Below are positions 1 through 10,010 of a stretch of 11,634 nucleotides of DNA, one piece after another. How positions within the stretch are numbered: position 1 is the first letter of the stretch; each line of letters starts with the position of its first letter. The stretch comes from a virus (lineage: Duplodnaviria; Heunggongvirae; Uroviricota; Caudoviricetes): IMG/VR virus record IMGVR_UViG_2737471861_000024. One strand, given 5' to 3'. Made by a program: the position numbers and the translations under genes. A model generated the notes under the pieces. That model made no database searches and was not told where the DNA came from. It was given only the letters and a program-made list of their open reading frames with translations.

Positions 1-1257
1 GTGCTTACCGATACAAAATTAAAAAACCTCAAGCCGCAGGACAAACTGTACAAGGTATCCGATCGTGACGGGCTGTATGTAGCTGTGCTTACGTCAGGAA
101 CGGTCTCGTTTCGCTATGACTACCGTATCAACGGTCGCCGCGAAACACTGGTAATCGGGCAGTATGGGCGTGACGGTATCAGTCTGGCAGAAGCGCGAGA
201 AGAACTGATTGCTGCAAAGAAGCTGCTTAAAGCAGGCCAGTCGCCGGCTGCGGCTAAACGTGACGGTATCAAAAAGATTCGTGGTGCCGAGACGTTTGCG
301 GTACATACCGACAGTTATATGAAACACGTCATCCTGGCTGACAGTACCCGTGCAATGAAGCAGTCGGTGATCGACCGTGACATACTTCCGGTTCTTGGCA
401 ACAAAATGATGGCTGAAATTACCACATCGATGGTTCGTGATTTGTGTGACCGGATTGTCGAACGCGGTGGCCGTGCAACAGCAGTACAGGCCAGGGAGAT
501 CATCAGCAGCGTATACCGTCACGCCAATGACCGTGGTCATGGTTTGTTTAATCCTGCGGCTGACATTAAACCTTCGTCTATCGCCATATTTAAACCACGA
601 GAGCGAACACTGACACCAGAAGAAATTGGCCTGTTCTTCCGCACGCTGGATGCCATTGGTGCTATGGGCACTATGAAAATGGCTTTAAAGCTGGTGCTTA
701 TCACTATGGTTCGTAAAGGCGAATTCACTAATGCAACGTGGGACGAAATAGATTTTAAAAAATGGACATGGACAATTCCTTCAGACCGCATGAAGGGAAG
801 CCGGGCGCACGTTATTTACCTGCCTAAACAGGCACAGGATATATTGGTTGGGTTGCAGATGTGCGCTGGTGGAAGTGAATATCTGGTTCCTGGTCGTTAC
901 AATTTCCGGAAGCCATTATCTAATGCCGCGCTGAACTCTCTGATCGACAGAACGGTGAAAATAATAAATGAAGATGGTGAGCATATTCAGGACTTCACCG
1001 TACACGATATGCGCCGTACAGCAAGTACGTTGTTGCATGAGGCTGGTTATCCTTCAGACTGGATTGAAAAGGCTCTGGCACATGAGCAGAAAGGTGTGCG
1101 CGCCGTATATAACAAAGCGGAATACGCCAGACAGCGCGCCTACATGTTGCAGCAGTGGGCCGATATGATTGATTCCTGGATTAACGGGGAGCATACGGAT
1201 CTGATTCCGTTCTCCCCGTCGAAGTTTGAGAGGTGGATGGAAGACAGTAATAAATAA
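1..1257 (+). CDS. int: Phage tyrosine integrase (P4-like, N-terminal arm-binding DUF4102-type domain); begins with GTG at window position 1, so either GTG-initiated or truncated by a few codons at the window edge
   Basis: 418-aa ORF; N-terminus LTDTKLKNLKP...DGLY..RY.Y typical of P4-family integrase arm-binding domain; C-terminal catalytic region HDMRRTASTLLHEAGYPSDWIEKALAHE...VRAVYNKAEY with the tyrosine-recombinase His/Arg/Tyr arrangement. Confidence 0.9.
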   Translation: MLTDTKLKNLKPQDKLYKVSDRDGLYVAVLTSGTVSFRYDYRINGRRETLVIGQYGRDGISLAEAREELIAAKKLLKAGQSPAAAKRDGIKKIRGAETFAVHTDSYMKHVILADSTRAMKQSVIDRDILPVLGNKMMAEITTSMVRDLCDRIVERGGRATAVQAREIISSVYRHANDRGHGLFNPAADIKPSSIAIFKPRERTLTPEEIGLFFRTLDAIGAMGTMKMALKLVLITMVRKGEFTNATWDEIDFKKWTWTIPSDRMKGSRAHVIYLPKQAQDILVGLQMCAGGSEYLVPGRYNFRKPLSNAALNSLIDRTVKIINEDGEHIQDFTVHDMRRTASTLLHEAGYPSDWIEKALAHEQKGVRAVYNKAEYARQRAYMLQQWADMIDSWINGEHTDLIPFSPSKFERWMEDSNK

Positions 1258-1259
1258 TT

Positions 1260-1919
1260 CTATCCTTCCTGGAGTTTGGTAAGCGTCAGATTTCCGCAGA
1301 ACACTGCGCCGGTGTCGATGTACATCTGGTTTGCATACACCAGTGGGTGATGTGCTGGCGTATGACCGAAGATGAACAAATCGGCACCGGTTATCTCCGA
1401 GACAATACCGTCCTGCGCGTCGCTAACCCGCTCACGATTCCATATCACCATTTCTTCTGGTACTGGCTTATCGAATGCGTATTCGTTGTGCGGGTAGTCT
1501 GCGTGACAGATGACGACCTTCTTATTGCCGGTAACCAGTTCGATAATCATCGGGAGGTTGGTAATCTTTGGCAGAAGGTATTTGAGTTGCACATCCTGCT
1601 CAGAATCAAGTTGGTGCCACCATCCACCGCCGTTTGACATCCAATGTCCGAAACTTCCGCCGTTGACCAGTGCATCCAGCATCATCTGCTCATGGTTGCC
1701 ACGAACAGCTCGGAACCACGGCATAGTAATCAAATCCAGGCATTCGACGTTTTCAGCGCCGCGGTCAACAAGGTCACCAACGGAAATAAGTAAATCGCGC
1801 GCCGGGTCGAATGAAACTTTGTCGAGTTCGTTCATCAGCAGCGTGTAGCACCCATGCAGATCGCCGACGACGAAGATATTGCACCAGTCAGCGCCATTGA
1901 TACGTTGATATAGGTTCAT
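1260..1919 (-). CDS. Ser/Thr protein phosphatase, PPP-family metallophosphoesterase (lambda PPase / NinI-like); start placed at internal ATG 1919 (MNLYQ...), not at the ORF-track start 2039
   Basis: GDLHG, GDLVDRG, GNHE metallophosphatase motifs; strong collinear similarity to recalled lambda PPase sequence ([71 protein letters not shown]); ATG at 1919 forms an ATGA overlap with the stop of the upstream methyltransferase gene. Confidence 0.85.
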
Positions 1920-2566
1920 GCTGCACGCTCCCGCCCCTGGTTGTCTATTGGTGACACCGGAGCATTGCTGAATGCATTTGTTAATCCGCCAATATCCAAC
2001 GCGTATCCAGGGTGTAGTTGCACTGCCGGGTCTTCGCACTGATTACCCCAAACATCGAAGCCATGAGACTTCTGGCGGGCGAACAGTTCAATGCGAGAAA
2101 CATCGCCTAACAATTGCACAAGTTTTTCACGAACGACATCTGGTTTTCTTGAATGCTCAAGCCGCGGTGCGGTAAATGACTGAACGATCCCTGCATTAAT
2201 GCGTGGAGGTAGTTTTCCCTTTACTGCAAACAGGCAATCTTCACTATTGGCGCGAGTCATGTGTCCCATACCCATAACCAGTTTATCTGGTTGTCGACTA
2301 CCACATTTTATCCACGTGAAGCCCTTCATGGTCATCAGACGGAATCCCCAGGCTTCAACAACTTTTAGCGCTTCGAGTGGTTGTGTTGGCACCCACCACA
2401 TGGCCAACAGACAGTTTTCATCGGCCAAATCCCACACAGGAAGGCGGCAGATATCCATCACACTCATAACCGGATATTTAAAACTGGCACCGCGATTACC
2501 ATCTGCGGCTTTGTCCCGGTATACCCAGGGTGGATCTGCATAGATTAGTGTGTATTTCTTAGTCAT
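1916..2566 (-). CDS. MT-A70 family DNA N6-adenine methyltransferase (phage orphan Dam-like MTase)
   Basis: 216-aa ORF with DPPW catalytic motif near N-terminus ([10 protein letters not shown]) characteristic of MT-A70-type N6-adenine methyltransferases; GGGGTGG Shine-Dalgarno-like sequence upstream of ATG at 2566; stop overlaps phosphatase start (ATGA). Confidence 0.8.
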
Positions 2567-2967: not shown

Positions 2968-3216
2968 TCATGCAGCGTTGCTCACGGGACGATATACACG
3001 TTGCTGAACAGGAGGTTTTTTACCCTGGAACTCTGCCGGGCTTGCTGCCTGACGTTCATCAAGCCAACGCTCAACTTCATCACGGTTCCATGCGCAGCGT
3101 TTATCGGTGATATACCAGCGTTTAGGAAATTCCCCTGCGCGCTCCATACGGTCGATAGTGCTCCATGACAGTGGCACCACCGCCAGGAGTTCCTTCTTAC
3201 CTAATGCACCTTTCAT
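2968..3216 (-). CDS. AlpA-family / excisionase-like small DNA-binding protein (MerR-superfamily HTH)
   Basis: 82-aa ORF; segment LLAVVPLSWSTIDRMERAGEFPKRWYITDKRCAWNRDEVERWLDER matches the AlpA/Xis pattern (st.y......G.FP....ig.r...W...EV..WL); GAGAGGT Shine-Dalgarno upstream of ATG 3216. Confidence 0.7.
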   Translation of the reverse strand: MKGALGKKELLAVVPLSWSTIDRMERAGEFPKRWYITDKRCAWNRDEVERWLDERQAASPAEFQGKKPPVQQRVYRPVSNAA

Positions 3217-3265: not shown

Positions 3266-4147
3266 TTACATAGATGTTTCGTTTAATTCTTCCCGACGAA
3301 CGCTGTAAACGTCGGTGGCTTTTGCCAGCAGTTCGTCATCATCTGAAAGTTTTTGTGCAATGTATTTGTAAGCCTTATCCAGTTCGGAGACAGTGCTGTA
3401 ATTCATCGCTGCGCTGGTAAAGGCCATCAGCATTTCTTCTGGATCACGGCTATCCGCTTTACGCGTTTGCTCATCAGGCTTTTTCGCTGGTTTAGCGTTG
3501 ATCAGACTGTTCATTCCCGCAGCAGTGGTCGTTTGCGGAGTAATGTCTCGCTCAACGCGCGGTGCCGTTTCCTGTAATTCGTCAGGGGTGTAAACACCGA
3601 GAAGTACATCAGGAGCGTGCAGGCGAGCCCATCGTTTCGTGCAAAGATAGGCAAGTTGCTGGCGCGGATCCTGTTCCCACAATGGAGAGTTACGCACTCC
3701 GGCTTGCGCCATACTGATGGTAAGCTCACGGGGTTCTGCTTCTCCTTTAAGAACCGCTGACACAGTTACCGTCAGATTCGGTGATTTATCTGTTTTGCCG
3801 TTAACATTCGACCAGTCACCGCTCCAGCGATAATTCAGGCGTGTCGCTAGCAGGCTGGAAGAGGATACGACCGCGTTTACCAACTGTGCTTCGTAGCCTA
3901 ACGTTCCGTTTACCACATGCGTTTTTTGCGCCACGGCGAAAGGGTTCATTCCCCACTGTGCCGCCTGCATGGTCACCGCCAGACAATCGGAAGGTTTGCC
4001 TTCAAGATGTTTCGGTACAGTCGCTTTGCTTTGTGACATCAACTCCGCGAAACGCACCAGTTGATTCATGCCCTCCGGGCTGAAGATTGCCGCAGCAGTA
4101 CCTACAGTTGCGCCTGGTTGTGATGTGATTGCGATATCATTGCTCAT
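3266..4147 (-). CDS. bet: Red-beta / Bet family single-strand annealing protein (recombinase)
   Basis: 293-aa ORF; ERDITP and surrounding C-terminal region resemble lambda Bet (ERQPERDITPVNDE); N-terminal region GMNPFAVAQKTHVVNGTLGYEAQLVNAVV typical of Red-beta family; start ATG overlaps stop of upstream nuclease gene (ATGA). Confidence 0.8.
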   Translation of the reverse strand: MSNDIAITSQPGATVGTAAAIFSPEGMNQLVRFAELMSQSKATVPKHLEGKPSDCLAVTMQAAQWGMNPFAVAQKTHVVNGTLGYEAQLVNAVVSSSSLLATRLNYRWSGDWSNVNGKTDKSPNLTVTVSAVLKGEAEPRELTISMAQAGVRNSPLWEQDPRQQLAYLCTKRWARLHAPDVLLGVYTPDELQETAPRVERDITPQTTTAAGMNSLINAKPAKKPDEQTRKADSRDPEEMLMAFTSAAMNYSTVSELDKAYKYIAQKLSDDDELLAKATDVYSVRREELNETSM

Positions 4148-4965
4148 ACGTACATATCCTGTTTACGTGCCCAGTCAGGGCGTTTAATAATTTCCACTCC
4201 GCCCCACTCATCGTTGATGCGGCATTCGTGATAGGTATTCAGATCCCGGCGGAACAGAGCGTGCCCGGCATCGACATCCGGCGCATCCAACTCGAACACG
4301 CGTACCGGATACCGACCACAATCAATGCTTTCGCTCACGGCAAGAAAGAAAAAACCATGCGGCTGACCAGTAACCTTCATTGCGCCTTCGCGGTACATTG
4401 CGTCCTGCACGTGGTAGCGGAATTCCTCGATGTGGCGTGCAAAACGGTCCATATCTGCAACCTTTTTCACGTCGACGATCACGTTGTGCTCGTTCAGCCA
4501 TTTGTCTGGACGAATGCGGCACAACTCACCAGTCTCTTCATCGTTCCAGTACATTGATGCTTCGTAGTAACCAGGTGCTTCCAGCATCCAGCGTGCCGCC
4601 GGGTGAGCCATTGCGCTATCACGCATCAGCTCCAGTTTCCGCCACTGCTCGGCATCAAGTACCGCAATCCCCATATCCGCTACATCACGAAGAAATGCTT
4701 CTTCGTCAGCTTTACCTTGTTTCGTCCGACGATCGAACTTTGGTGAAACAATGAAGCGTTTGTCGAATTCTCCAGGTTCCAGAAGCAGACAGTGCAATGC
4801 AGTTCCCATATCTAGTGCAGACTTTTTCTCTTCGTCTTCTGGTGCTGCCTGAACCCATTTAAGAAGCGCCGGATTCTTGGCAACCATGTCCAGTTGCGAC
4901 TTACTCACGCCGTCACCGGCGTGGTAGTCTTCGTTGCTGATGTCGAAATAAATTCCCGGTTTCAT
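4144..4965 (-). CDS. PD-(D/E)xK family exonuclease (RecB/Cas4-like nuclease domain), recombination partner of Bet
   Basis: 273-aa ORF; motifs RPDKW ... IVDVKKV (D ... D-x-K) and downstream YHVQDAMY (Q..Y) typical of PD-(D/E)xK nucleases; sits directly upstream of and translationally coupled to bet, as in RecE/RecT-type modules. Confidence 0.75.
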   Translation of the reverse strand: MKPGIYFDISNEDYHAGDGVSKSQLDMVAKNPALLKWVQAAPEDEEKKSALDMGTALHCLLLEPGEFDKRFIVSPKFDRRTKQGKADEEAFLRDVADMGIAVLDAEQWRKLELMRDSAMAHPAARWMLEAPGYYEASMYWNDEETGELCRIRPDKWLNEHNVIVDVKKVADMDRFARHIEEFRYHVQDAMYREGAMKVTGQPHGFFFLAVSESIDCGRYPVRVFELDAPDVDAGHALFRRDLNTYHECRINDEWGGVEIIKRPDWARKQDMYV

Positions 4966-5261
4966 GCCGCGTCCTTCTGTCCATCAAGCTGATCCGCCAG
5001 ATCCCAGCGGGCGATAATTGCCATTGCCTCTCGCCGATATGCATCCATCAGTTCTTCGAACTCAGGGCTGTCTTTAGCTGCTTCCAGCACTTCCTGACGA
5101 ACGCCTTTGCCTGTTACAACGTCGAAAGTTGAGGACAGTTGATGAAGTCGGATGCTCTCAATCAGTTCAACTTGTCGGTCATATAGCTGTTCTGACAGGC
5201 GGTAGTCCTTGTCGAATGCCAGCATGATTTTTTGAAGATTTTTCTGCTGATTAACGTTCAT
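4962..5261 (-). CDS. Hypothetical protein (~99 aa from ATG 5261; GTG 5267 alternative)
   Basis: ORF with GAGGTGG Shine-Dalgarno overlapping upstream stop codon, ATG 7 nt downstream; stop overlaps exonuclease start (ATGA); no recognised motif. Confidence 0.55.
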   Translation of the reverse strand: MNVNQQKNLQKIMLAFDKDYRLSEQLYDRQVELIESIRLHQLSSTFDVVTGKGVRQEVLEAAKDSPEFEELMDAYRREAMAIIARWDLADQLDGQKDAA

Positions 5262-5268
5262 ACCCACC

Positions 5269-6303
5269 TCAATATTTGATATACGCGTCCTGCACTTTGC
5301 CGCCAGCGATAGCCAACATTGCTTTCTGCGCGAATTCTTCGGGAATGCCTTGGGCTATCAGATCTTCGATTACTCTGCGGTTAACGGTACGGCGATGCTC
5401 TTTATCCGCAGCTCGGCGCGCTTCTTCGTCGGCGATACGCTTCTGTTCGTCAAGGCGGGCTTTTTCTGCCGCCTCTTGGCGTCGGCGTTCCTCGGCAACG
5501 GCTTCTTCTTTTTCGCGTTGTGCACGCTGCTCTGCTTCAATTCGCTGACGTTCTGCTACTTCAGCACGTGCTTTCTCTTCCGCCGCCAGGCGTGCCGCAG
5601 CCTCAATTTCAGATTTCGCTTTTTGTTCAGCTTCGAGCCTGGCCTGTTCAGCAGCTTCCCGGCGGATATTCTCTTCTCGCTCAATGCGCGCTTTTTCCTC
5701 CGCTTCTTTGCGAAGTCGCTCCAGCTCAGCGGCTTCATGCTCGCGTTTTTGAGCTACTGCGAGTGATTCTTCCAGTTTCTGGATGGTTGAATCCTTGGCT
5801 ACTCCAGCTTCTGCTGCGTACTCATGCCAACTCTCATCAAGTGCTACTGATTTAGCCTCTTGAATTCGTTCCTGAATATCAGTTGATGGCAAGTAGTTTC
5901 CGGAGAGATCGATCACGTCAGCTAGTGCTCGCAAATTTGTCAGGCGTTGTTGCAGTGCTTCGGTGCGTAATTTCTCAGCATTTTCCCACTCGGTGAGTGG
6001 GCGGCGTACTTCATCACGAAGCCGATCGCATTCGGTTACGAAGCGTCGTAACTCTGCTTCAACTACTTTCGGCTGTTCTTTCAGGCGTTTCAGATAATCA
6101 CGTCCTGGTTTTTCTACCGCTGTTTTACTTCTTGAAACCTTCGCAGCCAGAGATGCAATGCGCTTTCTGCCTTTGTCTGTGCTAATGTCAGGCACTTCAT
6201 TAACACCTTCACGGATCTGCTCAAGAAACTTTTCCAGTCCTTTTTCAACGTAAATTCTTGGTGCCATATCTGGTGTGATTTCGATGATTGATGATTCACT
6301 CAT
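5269..6303 (-). CDS. Hypothetical protein with long E/R/K/A/Q-rich charged helical repeat region (coiled-coil or single-alpha-helix-like), 344 aa
   Basis: Long ORF; residues ~180-300 are nearly pure E/A/R/K/Q repeats (EAEQKAKSEIEAAARLAAEEKARAEVAERQRIEAEQRAQREKEE...) flanked by non-repetitive N- and C-terminal segments; start ATG overlaps stop of upstream small ORF. Confidence 0.7.
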   Translation of the reverse strand: MSESSIIEITPDMAPRIYVEKGLEKFLEQIREGVNEVPDISTDKGRKRIASLAAKVSRSKTAVEKPGRDYLKRLKEQPKVVEAELRRFVTECDRLRDEVRRPLTEWENAEKLRTEALQQRLTNLRALADVIDLSGNYLPSTDIQERIQEAKSVALDESWHEYAAEAGVAKDSTIQKLEESLAVAQKREHEAAELERLRKEAEEKARIEREENIRREAAEQARLEAEQKAKSEIEAAARLAAEEKARAEVAERQRIEAEQRAQREKEEAVAEERRRQEAAEKARLDEQKRIADEEARRAADKEHRRTVNRRVIEDLIAQGIPEEFAQKAMLAIAGGKVQDAYIKY

Positions 6304-6461
6304 TTGCTAACCTGCTCCCATATCTCGTTATCGTTGGCCACATCGCGAGCTTCTTTGCTGACGAAAGCCCACTTAATGCCTTCCTGTAAGGTGCGGAACC
6401 TCCAGCTCATGAATCCGCATGCAGTAACGCAGTACCAACCGTTGATGATTTTCCACTGCAT
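6300..6461 (-). CDS. Small hypothetical ORF (53 aa, MQWKIINGWYCVTACGFMSWRFRTLQEGIKWAFVSKEARDVANDNEIWEQVSK), first gene after the leftward early promoter; absent from the ORF track (under 60 aa)
   Basis: Hand translation of minus strand; GAGGT Shine-Dalgarno 8 nt upstream of ATG 6461; TGA stop overlaps ATG of the next gene (ATGA). Confidence 0.45.
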   Translation of the reverse strand: MQWKIINGWYCVTACGFMSWRFRTLQEGIKWAFVSKEARDVANDNEIWEQVSK

Positions 6462-6480
6462 AACTTGTTACCTCGGTCTG

Positions 6481-6495
6481 TTACCGTTGAGGTAA
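6481..6495. promoter_or_regulatory. Operator-like palindrome TTACC-GTTGA-GGTAA overlapping the -10 / transcription start of the leftward early promoter
   Basis: Perfect 5-bp inverted half-sites separated by 5 bp; same motif recurs at 6543-6557, 7255-7269, 9586-9600 and 9648-9662. Confidence 0.55.
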
Positions 6496-6523
6496 TAATT
6501 ATGCGTATCTGGTTTGGTGTCAA
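6495..6523 (-). promoter_or_regulatory. Putative leftward early promoter (PL-like): -35 TTGACA (6523-6518), 17-bp spacer, -10 AATTAT (6500-6495) on minus strand
   Basis: Perfect consensus -35 hexamer with 17-bp spacing to an A2/T6-containing -10; flanked by operator palindromes; positioned in front of the leftward operon. Confidence 0.5.
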
Positions 6524-6542
6524 TAGATATGAGTTAAAAAAA

Positions 6543-6557
6543 TTACCCGTTAGGTAA
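6543..6557. promoter_or_regulatory. Operator-like palindrome TTACC-CGTTA-GGTAA, 19 bp upstream of the PL-like -35
   Basis: Perfect TTACC-N5-GGTAA inverted repeat. Confidence 0.55.
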
Positions 6558-6568
6558 TCGAACAGGCA

Positions 6569-6594
6569 ATAAAAAAGCCGCCAGAAGGCGGCTT
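6569..6594 (-). terminator. Rho-independent terminator downstream of the repressor gene (minus strand): 8-bp stem AAGCCGCC/GGCGGCTT, 4-nt loop, followed by T-run on minus strand
   Basis: Hairpin aagccgcc-agaa-ggcggctt at 6575-6594; plus-strand A-run 6570-6576 gives a U-tract on the minus-strand transcript; lies 20 bp beyond the repressor stop. Confidence 0.6.
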
Positions 6595-6614
6595 ACTTAC
6601 TGAAAAATATGATT

Positions 6615-7199
6615 TTATTGTTTGTTTTTTTCGTTCTGGTTGATGACAAATTCAATGTAACTTTCGATCTTTGCTTTCTCGGTTTCGGGTAACAATGCGT
6701 AGCGCGAGCGATCATAGTTGATGGTCGCAGGGTCGTGCGGGTGAATCAGTAATTCATAGCCGTGACGCCCGAATGCGGATGCAACATTCTCCAGGGTGGA
6801 AATGGAAACGCTGACCTCATTGTTTAACAGGCGGCTGATTGTCACCTGGGCGACGCCGGATGCGCGGTGTAGTTTTCCCTGCGTTGAAAGGTCGCGGCTT
6901 TCGCTCATCCAGCGTTCCAGGTTGTGAGCCGCCAACTGACCAATGTCGCTTGGGCCGACAGGATGAAAACCTTCCTGAGAAAGCGAGCGATCGATATCAA
7001 GCCAGTTACGGGGTTTATTGGCGGCAGCTTCAATTTTTCGCGCAACCTGGTCGCCGATAACTTTCTTGCCAAGAGCCCAGCGGTTTACCAGATTTGCCTG
7101 AGTTCCAAGTTTTTCTGCCATCCGCGTCTGAACACCATTGAATTCACGGTCGATCAAGTCGTTGAGATTTTGCCTGCGGACGTCCTGGATACTTTTCAT
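6615..7199 (-). CDS. CI-like prophage repressor with two tandem XRE-type helix-turn-helix domains; no peptidase-S24 (LexA-like) autocleavage domain recognisable
   Basis: 194-aa ORF divergent from the Cro-like gene; HTH 1 ~aa 25-70 (TRMAEKLGTQANLVNRWALGKKVIGDQVARKIEAAANKPRNWLD), HTH 2 ~aa 115-150 (ASGVAQVTISRLLNNEVSVSISTLENVASAFG); no Ala-Gly/Ser-Lys cleavage module seen. Confidence 0.7.
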   Translation of the reverse strand: MKSIQDVRRQNLNDLIDREFNGVQTRMAEKLGTQANLVNRWALGKKVIGDQVARKIEAAANKPRNWLDIDRSLSQEGFHPVGPSDIGQLAAHNLERWMSESRDLSTQGKLHRASGVAQVTISRLLNNEVSVSISTLENVASAFGRHGYELLIHPHDPATINYDRSRYALLPETEKAKIESYIEFVINQNEKNKQ

Positions 7200-7254: not shown

Positions 7255-7317
7255 TTACCCAACAGGTAAATGCACCCCATAGGTAACTATCCTTGATTTT
7301 TGTTACCTTATGGGTGA
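7255..7317. promoter_or_regulatory. Divergent immunity-region operator cluster: O1 TTACC-CAACA-GGTAA (7255-7269, perfect), O2 GCACC-CCATA-GGTAA (7272-7286, degenerate), O3 TTACC-TTATG-GGTGA (7303-7317, degenerate)
   Basis: Same TTACC-N5-GGTAA family as at PL; sites lie in the 154-bp gap between the divergent repressor and Cro-like genes; an alternative reading is a larger inverted repeat CCATAGGTAAC / GTTACCTTATGG flanking TTGATT. Confidence 0.5.
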
Positions 7318-7734: not shown

Positions 7735-7935
7735 ATGGAAATCATTACACGTATTGATGCCGCAAAGCGCGGACTTAAACGCTACTACACCGGAAAACCA
7801 TGTAAGCATGGACATGACAGTGAACGCTGGGTTTACAACGGACACTGTGTTGAGTGCACCATGGAATCAAACCGTCGCATCAGGGCAGAGATTAAGCAGA
7901 TCATGATTAATTCCTCCCCACAACATTCAAACTGA
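7735..7935 (+). CDS. Small hypothetical protein (66 aa) with Cys/His cluster (C-x-H-x-H ... C-x2-C), possible zinc-binding; occupies the cII position between cro-like and O-like genes
   Basis: Start placed at ATG 7735 (MEIITRIDAAKRGLKRYYTGKPCKHGHDSERWVYNGHCVEC...) rather than ORF-track start 7672; AGGG Shine-Dalgarno-like sequence upstream. Confidence 0.55.
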   Translation: MEIITRIDAAKRGLKRYYTGKPCKHGHDSERWVYNGHCVECTMESNRRIRAEIKQIMINSSPQHSN

Positions 7936-7950
7936 TAGCGGAGATTAATC

Positions 7951-8766
7951 ATGAGCAGACATGCAACAGATTGGGCCTGGGAGACAGATCCAGGTAGCTC
8001 GTCATTAAAGCTCATACTGCTCTCGATGGCTGACAGAGCCGATGAATATAACCTCTGCTACCCCAGCATAGAACGCCTCGTTAAAGACACTTGCCTGAAT
8101 AAAAAAACCGTACAGGCCGGGCTTATATCGCTCATGAAAATGGGGCTTATTTCAGATACCGGAGAGAGAAAGGGAGCGACGAAAAGAGTGCGGGTTTTCT
8201 CTCTTAATATAACCAAAAACGGGAACATTAAAGGCAACCGGGAGGGGGGCAATGAACCCGAAAACGGTAATGTTACCGAAAACGGGAATATACCCAAAAA
8301 CGGGATGTTGAATGATCCCAAAAACGGGATGTTGAATGATCCCAAAAACGGGATCCAGAACCAGTCATATAACCAGTCATTTAACCAAGAGAGGGAGAGC
8401 AGGACAAAAACCGGGGATTCTGTGCCTCATGACCACGGCGCAAACAACGCCGTGATGAATAACTTTGTTCCTCCTGGTGGGCCAGGGCAATTAGGCAAAT
8501 TTGTCATGCATGAACAATGGCAGCCATCAGATGACTTTCTTCGGAAAAGCTCATTGCAGGGGATCTACCTGGACAGTCTGCCAACGGCACAGGAACTTGC
8601 AGAATTCAGAATTTACTGGATGGCTGAGGGTAAGGCATACCATCAGGCACAGTGGGAGCAGAAGCTGGCAAGGCGGCTGCAGATTAGCAGACAGAAGCAA
8701 TCAACATTACCTGATAACAACGTTCCGCACTGGAACAGCCCTGAAGCATGGGAGGATTTCTTGTGA
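7951..8766 (+). CDS. Replication initiator, lambda O-like (N-terminal winged-helix DNA-binding domain, internal iteron-encoded linker)
   Basis: 271-aa ORF; N-terminal LILLSMADRADEYNLCYPSIERLVKDTCLNKKTVQAGLISLMKMGLIS resembles the phage replisome-organiser N-terminal domain; GGAG Shine-Dalgarno before ATG 7951; immediately upstream of the P-like gene; contains direct DNA repeats as in the lambda O/ori arrangement. Confidence 0.8.
   Translation: MSRHATDWAWETDPGSSSLKLILLSMADRADEYNLCYPSIERLVKDTCLNKKTVQAGLISLMKMGLISDTGERKGATKRVRVFSLNITKNGNIKGNREGGNEPENGNVTENGNIPKNGMLNDPKNGMLNDPKNGIQNQSYNQSFNQERESRTKTGDSVPHDHGANNAVMNNFVPPGGPGQLGKFVMHEQWQPSDDFLRKSSLQGIYLDSLPTAQELAEFRIYWMAEGKAYHQAQWEQKLARRLQISRQKQSTLPDNNVPHWNSPEAWEDFL
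8213..8356. repeat. Candidate replication origin iterons inside the O-like gene: about six copies of CC(A/G)AAAACGG(G/T)A spaced at 18-24 bp, including a perfect tandem 24-bp duplication (8293-8316 and 8317-8340) and a partial third copy
   Basis: Direct repeats read in sequence at about 8213, 8258, 8276, 8294, 8318, 8342; the tandem 24-mer cccaaaaacgggatgttgaatgat encodes repeated PKNGMLND peptide units. Confidence 0.7.
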
Positions 8767-9585: not shown

Positions 9586-9600
9586 TTACCTAATAGGTAA
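9586..9600. promoter_or_regulatory. Operator-like palindrome GTTACC-TAATA-GGTAAC, 19 bp upstream of the -35 of a third promoter
   Basis: Perfect TTACC-N5-GGTAA; spacing to the -35 is identical to the arrangement at the PL-like promoter. Confidence 0.55.
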
Positions 9601-9619: not shown

Positions 9620-9648
9620 TTGATTTCGTGTCTTATGTGGTTTTTAAT
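9620..9648 (+). promoter_or_regulatory. Putative rightward promoter for the downstream accessory genes: -35 TTGATT (9620-9625), 17-bp spacer, -10 TTTAAT (9643-9648)
   Basis: Hexamers read by eye; flanked by operator palindromes with the same spacing as at PL; shared ATCTATTGA core around the -35 in both promoters. Confidence 0.5.
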
Positions 9649-9662
9649 TACCTTAGAGGTAA
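9648..9662. promoter_or_regulatory. Operator-like palindrome TTACC-TTAGA-GGTAA overlapping the -10/start region and the ribosome-binding site of the gene at 9666
   Basis: Perfect TTACC-N5-GGTAA; its GAGGT doubles as Shine-Dalgarno for ATG 9666. Confidence 0.55.
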
Positions 9663-9665
9663 ATC

Positions 9666-10010
9666 ATGAGAAAACAGATACAGGCTCTTGGTCGACTCAA
9701 AACAGGCCAGATGAACAAAACAGAATCTGCGTATTGCCAGCACCTTGAGCAGCGTAAACGTGCAGGGGAAGTCGCCTGGTATCGGTTCGAGGGTATCAAG
9801 CTGCGGCTGGCTGACAACACGTTTTATACGCCCGATTTCGCTGTGATGCTCGCCACCGGAGAGATGGAACTGCACGAAGTGAAAGGTTTCTGGACCGACG
9901 ACGCCAGGGTGAAAACCAAAGTCGCCGCAGATCAGTATCCGTTCCGAATCATCGGGGTAACGGTTAAACCAAAGAAAGCAGGTGGTGGCTGGAATATCGA
10001 AGAGTTCTGA
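9666..10010 (+). CDS. DUF1064-like small phage protein, possible PD-(D/E)xK-type nuclease (114 aa)
   Basis: Motifs YTPDF and ELHEVKG (D ... E-x-K) in the arrangement recalled for DUF1064 proteins; strong Shine-Dalgarno GAGGTAA upstream. Confidence 0.55.
   Translation: MRKQIQALGRLKTGQMNKTESAYCQHLEQRKRAGEVAWYRFEGIKLRLADNTFYTPDFAVMLATGEMELHEVKGFWTDDARVKTKVAADQYPFRIIGVTVKPKKAGGGWNIEEF

Follow-up and report, generated by a model that had tools for sequence, protein, structure and literature searches.

The IMG/VR virus record IMGVR_UViG_2737471861_000024, a stretch of 11,634 nucleotides (nt) that we refer to in its entirety as the window, is a temperate, epsilon15/phiV10-like (Uetakevirus) prophage that contains on its minus strand three consecutive open reading frames (ORFs) of 53, 344 and 99 amino acids (aa). 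A preliminary description of the window had located these ORFs at positions 4962-6461, between a PL-like promoter and a recombinase pair, and the ORF coordinates and the promoter agree with that account; the promoter is also flanked by operators. We find that the three ORFs are all real genes, and that the block they form makes up the promoter-proximal end of a conserved recombination (Rec) module and not free-floating novel anti-defence cargo. In phage records the 99-aa gene always adjoins the exonuclease gene, and one set of 36 records contains both it and the 53-aa gene, the 99-aa protein being conserved there at 44-100% identity and the 53-aa protein at 68-98%. The three genes had also been thought to be translationally coupled throughout; this is so at the 53/344 and 99/exonuclease junctions, each of which is an ATGA overlap, but the 344-aa and 99-aa genes do not overlap and are separated by a 7-nt spacer (TGA-GGTGGGT-ATG) with a Shine-Dalgarno-like GGTGG. 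An in-frame GTG at position 5267 is an alternative start for the last of the three, which would then encode 101 aa instead of 99.

The recombinase pair itself had been taken for a lambda-type exonuclease and Bet and is actually a RecE-type (DUF3799) exonuclease together with RecT; the 273-aa exonuclease matches NCBIfam exodeoxyribonuclease VIII at profile positions 606-873. We considered whether the 344-aa or the 99-aa protein could be the detached N-terminus of RecE (residues 1-600), and neither matched the 877-position RecE profile NF007259. Pfam and NCBIfam scans of the 53-, 344- and 99-aa proteins returned nothing above threshold, and searches of PDB sequences returned only coiled-coil noise. 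None of the three proteins has a sequence match to lambda Gam, Kil, CIII or Ral, just as the preliminary description had judged.

Judged by its alignments, the 344-aa protein falls in the family that includes Agt (also called Mog) of bacteriophage phi80 and gp53 of the Pseudomonas phage D3, and the largest gene of the block is not the novel gene that it had been proposed to be. It aligns over its full length both with phi80 Agt (56% identity, E 1e-95) and with the product of D3 orf53, that is gp53 (39% identity, E 8e-49), and all three proteins match phrog_1376 from end to end (E 1e-120 for the 344-aa protein, 1.6e-103 for phi80 Agt and 6.7e-131 for D3 orf53). The family is without a Pfam model and is large, the N-terminal 190 residues of the 344-aa protein alone finding 4932 clusters at 50% identity (E<=0.001). 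Its layout is a conserved N-domain, then long charged helices, then a small C-terminal helical domain. The charged, helical character that had been ascribed to the protein is borne out by the central region, which has 34 D+E and 31 K+R among 115 residues, and by an AlphaFold2 model (41 homologues; predicted local distance difference test score, pLDDT, 86.5) that consists almost wholly of very long helices, at residues 43-126, 157-245 and 252-317, followed by the small C-terminal helical domain. Fold searches with this model found only uncharacterised relatives or generic spectrin-like bundles. We note that the C-terminal ~40 residues (window 5269-5390) have the pattern L..L...G.....A..A...IA.G.......I.Y and by eye resemble a UBA/EF-Ts-N-like three-helix module; a C-terminus of this kind, for which there is no Pfam support, would suggest a role in protein-protein interaction.

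The relatives of the 344-aa protein come with two separate sets of observations. The GenBank record of phi80 describes agt as 'anti-toxin for Gam; Mog (modifier of Gam)' and the adjoining gamL as 'toxic without Mog', and the early-left genes of that phage run agt, gamL, rec(bet), exo. The window resembles phi80 in having, in an early-left operon, an agt-like gene, then a gene for a protein of ~95 aa and then recombinases. It differs from phi80 in that the small gene belongs to phrog_856 and is not a homologue of GamL or Gam, in that the recombinases are RecE/RecT where those of phi80 are Exo/Bet-like, and in that the window protein has ~65 residues more than phi80 Agt (~113-180), inserted after the first of the long helices of the model and before the second. 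The alignment with D3 gp53 spans the N-domain, the charged helices and the C-terminal domain, and in D3, as in the window, the gene precedes a phage single-strand annealing protein (SSAP) and an exonuclease; both in D3 and in a second Pseudomonas phage, JBD44, erf and a YqaJ exonuclease gene come immediately after the homologue. In HK544 the homologue is found between ral and cIII, in an operon shared with erf/abc2.

D3 orf53 has been reported as one among three phage factors that redundantly license the Gabija defence system (PMC12407980, a 2025 preprint). By itself it makes escape phages targets of Gabija once more, cross-complements JBD30 escapers and renders transduced plasmids Gabija-sensitive, and the same phenotype is obtained with Exo-Erf and with Mu Gam, which exclude RecBCD; the authors of PMC12407980 put licensing down to the exclusion of RecBCD from DNA ends. 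That preprint makes no mention of phi80 or of Agt/Mog. We note that Gabija licensing was measured in P. aeruginosa, whereas the protein considered here is from E. coli.

To describe the setting of this family more broadly we fetched 80 IMG/VR loci that encode relatives of the 344-aa protein at 47-99% identity. A Rec module is present within ~1 kb downstream of the agt-like gene at all of the loci with readable downstream sequence (78/80), and consists of RecE/RecT, YqaJ/RecT, Bet/Exo, Erf with SSB, Sak4 (AAA_24) with SSB, or a Rad52-like protein with SSB. The agt-like gene thus precedes SSAPs of all classes (RecT, Red-beta, Erf, Sak4 and Rad52-like), which marks it as a companion of Rec modules whatever their class of recombinase. 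The space from the agt-like gene to the first Rec enzyme, which we call the Gam slot, is occupied by a member of the 99-aa family at 56 loci, by Gam or GamL at 16 and by both at none. The Gam/GamL proteins in question have BLAST matches to lambda GamS and fall in phrog_1050 and phrog_259, 'gam-like host nuclease inhibitor', among them phi80 GamL, and each of the two kinds of slot protein is found with RecE/RecT and also with Bet/Exo. At four Erf/Sak4 modules the agt-like gene is followed in this slot by a 65-aa ORF and then by Arf (Pfam Phage_Arf).

The 99-aa protein belongs to phrog_856, a narrow, enterobacterial family represented in a large protein database by 53 clusters, all at least 73% identical; it is 49% identical to epsilon15 gp36, and the IMG/VR loci contain divergent relatives at 25-55% identity that extend into phrog_3486. 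The protein is acidic (isoelectric point 4.7) and predicted to be helical, and its AlphaFold2 model, which is of low confidence (pLDDT 66), has two long helices and one short one. It is like lambda Gam (PF06064, phrog_259) and phi80-type GamL (phrog_1050) in size (93-102 aa), in being helical and acidic, in its position immediately upstream of the Rec enzymes and in that the two kinds of protein are mutually exclusive. It is unlike them in sequence, with no significant match between the families, and the low-confidence model yielded no fold match. In the whole genomes of phiV10, epsilon15 and phiv142-3 neither the lambda Gam/GamL profile nor P22-type Abc2 found a match, and of the slot families only the 99-aa family is present in them; Mu Gam, for which no search was made, is annotated in neither phiV10 nor epsilon15. 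From its position and its mutual exclusivity with Gam/GamL we infer that the 99-aa protein would act as an antagonist of RecBCD or at DNA ends, and its gene is a reasonable candidate for a Gam-like antagonist of a new sequence class.

This assignment gains some support from phage HK75, since Gp33 of that phage, a small protein encoded directly upstream of Erf and thus in the equivalent place, triggers OLD, a sensor of RecBCD status, and has been proposed to be a RecBCD manipulator. This parallel indicates that the position just before the SSAP repeatedly holds RecBCD-directed proteins. P22 Arf and HK75 Gp33 are likewise small proteins that come just before an SSAP, but they are shorter (47-56 aa) and have no sequence relation to the 99-aa or 53-aa proteins. 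A motif that we noticed by eye, W-[DS]-[DE]-E-x-F, is common to HK75 gp33 (locus L099, 7212-7382), its HK544 counterpart HK544_034 (L003, 6187-6357) and P22-type Arf (for example at L074, 4664-4819, Pfam Phage_Arf), and on the strength of this motif HK75 Gp33 may be a relative of Arf.

The 53-aa gene is the conserved first, or leader, gene of the early-left operon. Its product is 77% identical to epsilon15 gp37 and more conserved than its neighbours, the family sharing a core of N-G-x-Y-C-x-T-x-C-G ... F ... E ... W-A-F, and a homologue stands directly upstream of the agt-like gene at 54 of the 80 IMG/VR loci. The agt-like gene that follows it behaves within Uetakevirus as a clean cassette. 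The closest matches to the window are phiv142-3 and phiV10. Escherichia phage phiv142-3 is 97.7% identical to window 4900-6620 over the full length of the region, and Uetakevirus (epsilon15-like podovirus) genomes such as those of phiV10 and TL-2011b match it in two pieces only. The cassette is absent from phiV10, where homology breaks off within the final codons of the 53-aa gene and picks up again precisely at the start codon (ATG) of the 99-aa gene.

A possible remote relationship of the Agt N-domain is to DUF1351 (PF07083), which is found in proteins of ~280-350 aa that similarly adjoin RecT, Erf or Sak4 genes, in phages of Firmicutes (PMC8093625). DUF1351 proteins differ from the Agt family in being without the long charged helix and the C-terminal domain. 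None of 41 Agt-family members was matched by PF07083 in hmmscan, and hhalign of the Agt N-domain with ten DUF1351 proteins gave a co-linear but weak alignment of 109 columns (probability 13%, P 0.002); the same N-domain against one DUF1351 sequence was negative.

Taken as a whole, the block is in our estimation best explained, with a probability of roughly 0.55, as a set of accessory genes of the Rec module in which the 344-aa and 99-aa proteins act on the RecBCD/DNA-end axis and the 53-aa gene is a leader. Under this explanation the lifting of repression would allow PL to transcribe the 53-aa gene, the agt-like gene, the 99-aa gene, recE and recT as one tightly coupled unit. The 344-aa protein, acting on the RecBCD/DNA-end axis, might tune the activity or toxicity of the small inhibitor encoded beside it, as the phi80 annotation has Agt do for GamL, or might itself keep RecBCD off phage DNA ends; if members of the family do the latter, this would explain how D3 gp53 can license Gabija alone. 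The 99-aa protein would be the functional counterpart of Gam/GamL and would block or divert RecBCD, and with RecBCD blocked RecE/RecT could process phage DNA ends and rolling-circle concatemers could survive. The suggestion in the preliminary description that the three proteins are anti-RecBCD candidates is thereby supported in part, by the 344-aa protein as a homologue of phi80 Agt/Mog and D3 gp53 and by the 99-aa protein as an occupant of the Gam slot, but the 53-aa protein is left unexplained by it.

A bolder version of this explanation, which we put forward tentatively and regard as possible but rather doubtful, is that phrog_856/phrog_3486 would constitute a fifth class of RecBCD antagonist, with no sequence relation to the known Gam, GamL, Abc2 and Mu Gam, and that Agt/Mog/gp53 would serve as a general partner, either tuning inhibitors of this sort or protecting DNA ends, that works with either type of inhibitor and with every class of recombinase and makes phages visible to sensors of RecBCD status such as Gabija, OLD and retrons.

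Several observations weigh against a role for the block on the RecBCD/DNA-end axis. The 80 loci are phylogenetically redundant. The 99-aa gene is present without agt in phiV10 and most of its relatives, so that the two are not obligate partners, and D3, where orf53 is directly before erf, differs from the window in having no Gam-slot gene between them. The function of phi80 Agt is a GenBank annotation, and a biochemical activity is known for no member of the Agt family. The 99-aa protein and five divergent relatives have no match to Pfam Gam even at E<=10, a profile that GamL-type controls match at E 0.0025-0.13; phrog_856/3486 and the Gam/GamL PHROGs (phrog_259, phrog_1050) have no overlap, an hhalign comparison of this family to Gam/GamL reaches a probability of no more than 33% (P 4.4e-4, 62 columns), and a Foldseek search of the PDB with the low-confidence model (pLDDT 66) found no meaningful match.

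The abundance of Chi sites also bears on this question. Chi sites (GCTGGTGG) are enriched in Uetakevirus genomes and are strictly in one orientation, with 8/0 in phiV10, 6/0 in epsilon15 and 0/9 in phiv142-3, where ~0.5 per strand is the expectation from base composition as computed for phiv142-3; most of them lie in structural genes. Among lambdoid phages the abundance of Chi correlates with the absence of an anti-RecBCD gene (PMC12315714), and the 6-9 sites that Uetakevirus genomes carry thus count as a further point against an antagonist. We note that phi80, which has GamL, nevertheless has seven Chi sites on its top strand and two on its bottom strand, and since a GamL-bearing phage is also Chi-rich the Chi count is not decisive as to anti-RecBCD function.

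The 99-aa protein, and possibly the 53-aa protein, could instead be accessory recombination factors like Arf or Abc1 of P22 that load or stimulate RecE/RecT and leave RecBCD untouched. The ATGA overlap that couples the 99-aa gene to recE fits such a role, as do the occurrence of Arf (after the 65-aa ORF) in the slot of four Erf/Sak4 modules and the failure to find any similarity of the 99-aa protein to Gam, and the abundance of Chi in these genomes suggests that the shut-down of RecBCD is incomplete. Yet the 99-aa family is also found before Bet/Exo (for example at locus L054) and so is not confined to a single recombinase, its alternation with Gam/GamL is strict, with no co-occurrence, and the Arf-like HK75 Gp33 is itself now a proposed RecBCD manipulator; we consider this explanation unlikely. 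It is less probable again, and in our view a long shot, that we are dealing with three independent morons for host takeover or anti-defence that ride on PL, such as a Kil-like division inhibitor, a CIII-like FtsH inhibitor or a DNA mimic directed against restriction. Points in favour are that the corresponding region of lambda contains kil, cIII and ral, that the 99-aa protein has an acidic isoelectric point, that the 344-aa gene comes and goes as an indel cassette, and that by eye the start of the 53-aa protein (MQWKIINGW) recalls that of lambda CIII (MQYAIAGW). None of the three window proteins, however, matches Pfam Lambda_CIII, Kil, Ral, ArdA or Ocr at E<=0.1, and the association of the 344-aa family with Rec modules extends to distant phages. 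The identification of the 53-aa protein as CIII (PF02061) was rejected, Pfam being negative, BLASTP against CIII returning nothing and the family core (NG-YC-T-CG, WAF) being unlike the amphipathic helix of CIII, and beyond the by-eye N-terminal resemblance we found no similarity of the 53-aa protein to lambda CIII or Kil. Nothing in our analysis supports the anti-restriction or cell-division-inhibiting roles that had been raised for these genes.

Database names point to yet another identity for the 344-aa protein, that of a TolA/EnvC-like envelope or structural coiled-coil protein: JBD44 gp65 is annotated 'TolA protein', a JGI name is 'septal ring factor EnvC' and there is a weak NCBIfam TolA match. 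That match (NF007065, E 0.0015) scores 17.6 bits where the cut-off is 213 and covers the charged helix only, the protein has no hydrophobic segment, and the names are low-complexity artefacts, so we regard the envelope identity as effectively refuted. We favour, over these alternatives, accessory Rec-module genes of which two would act on RecBCD or at DNA ends.

The features of the window are collected in Table 1, the order of genes having been taken from annotated neighbours in relatives and from our own scans of the window proteins.

Table 1. Genes and regulatory features of the window, with the basis on which each was assigned.
Feature	Position (nt)	Strand	Basis
Integrase	1-1257	+	Annotated neighbours and scans
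Ser/Thr phosphatase, adenine methylase, PerC-like activator	Between integrase and AlpA/Xis-like gene	-	Annotated neighbours and scans
AlpA/Xis-like protein	2968-3216	-	Annotated neighbours and scans
RecT single-strand annealing protein	3266-4147	-	Pfam RecT, E 2e-31
RecE-type PD-(D/E)XK exonuclease, nuclease domain only, 273 aa	4144-4965	-	Pfam DUF3799, E 4e-22
99-aa gene (phrog_856; epsilon15 gp36, phiV10 p38)	4962-5261	-	ATG start
344-aa gene (phrog_1376)	5269-6303	-	ORF list and profile match
53-aa gene (phrog_898; epsilon15 gp37, phiV10 p39), first of early-left operon	6300-6461	-	ORF list and profile match
Operator palindromes TTACC-N5-GGTAA, one each side of PL	6481-6495, 6543-6557		Exact matches
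PL-like sigma-70 promoter, TTGACA-17-nt spacer-AATTAT	6495-6523	-	10/12 consensus positions
Intrinsic terminator ending repressor transcript, upstream of PL	6575-6594	-	8-bp stem, 6 GC pairs, then T run
Prophage repressor, two helix-turn-helix (HTH) domains	6615-7199	-	Pfam HTH_3
Operator palindrome, divergent PR/PRM region	7255-7269		Exact TTACC-N5-GGTAA
Cro-position gene and replication genes	Beyond repressor	+	Annotated neighbours and scans

The control region upstream of the block has counterparts in the records of related phages. A terminator is annotated in the phiV10 record at the place equivalent to that in the window, and the epsilon15 record has repressor sites annotated at the place equivalent to the PL operators; TTACC-N5-GGTAA palindromes occur five times as exact copies in the whole window, where 0.01 would be expected. 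Orf43 of phiv142-3, in the 97.7%-identical counterpart region, is annotated as repressor, and the ORF21 repressor of phage ZX5, which when overexpressed blocks lytic transcription, has the same sequence as phiv142-3 Orf43 and the phiV10 repressor (PMC9782041). The two further exact copies of the palindrome, at window 9586-9600 and 9648-9662, are 47 bp apart and lie downstream of the replication genes, just upstream of a 114-aa ORF (9666-10010). This pair suggests a third repressor-controlled site; epsilon15 has a repressor site annotated at a comparable place, after its replication gene.

Some other features of the window are worth recording. The phosphatase gene (1260-2039, minus strand), between int and the methylase gene, is PrpA/NinI-like (NCBIfam PRK11439, E 2e-79), and phiV10 has a small DUF1382 gene at this position instead; as the phosphatase ORF overlaps that of the methylase by ~120 nt, its true start is probably an internal ATG. 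The RecE-type exonuclease and RecT (window 3266-4965) are encoded by separate, ATGA-coupled genes, as they are in phiv142-3, and in phiV10 (L002, 2306-4066) a single fused 'recET' ORF of 1761 nt is annotated. The replication gene at 7951-8766 encodes a 271-aa protein with a repetitive stretch, NGNVTENGNIPKNGMLNDPKNGMLNDPKNGIQN, which implies tandem DNA repeats inside this O-like gene (about 8230-8350) that may be origin iterons, as in lambda O. At the CII position, the gene at 7738-7935 (plus strand; the equivalent of phiv142-3 Orf41) has a product of 66 aa (MEIITRIDAAKRGLKRYYTGKPCKHGH...C.EC) that shows a Cys/His pattern and not a CII-like HTH, and this protein had no family match in profile scans.

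RecBCD antagonism is sensed by several defence systems, among them Gabija, OLD and retron Ec48, and RecET/Gam cassettes are widespread tools for recombineering. Our analysis places the 'modifier of Gam' of phi80, Agt, and the D3 protein that licenses Gabija, gp53, in one family, and so links two observations that had been made separately. The Agt/Mog/gp53 family, with ~4,900 clusters at 50% identity, precedes recombination modules of every SSAP class. Its neighbour in the window alternates with Gam/GamL, which makes the 99-aa family a concrete candidate for a RecBCD antagonist of epsilon15/phiV10-type phages that carry RecET.

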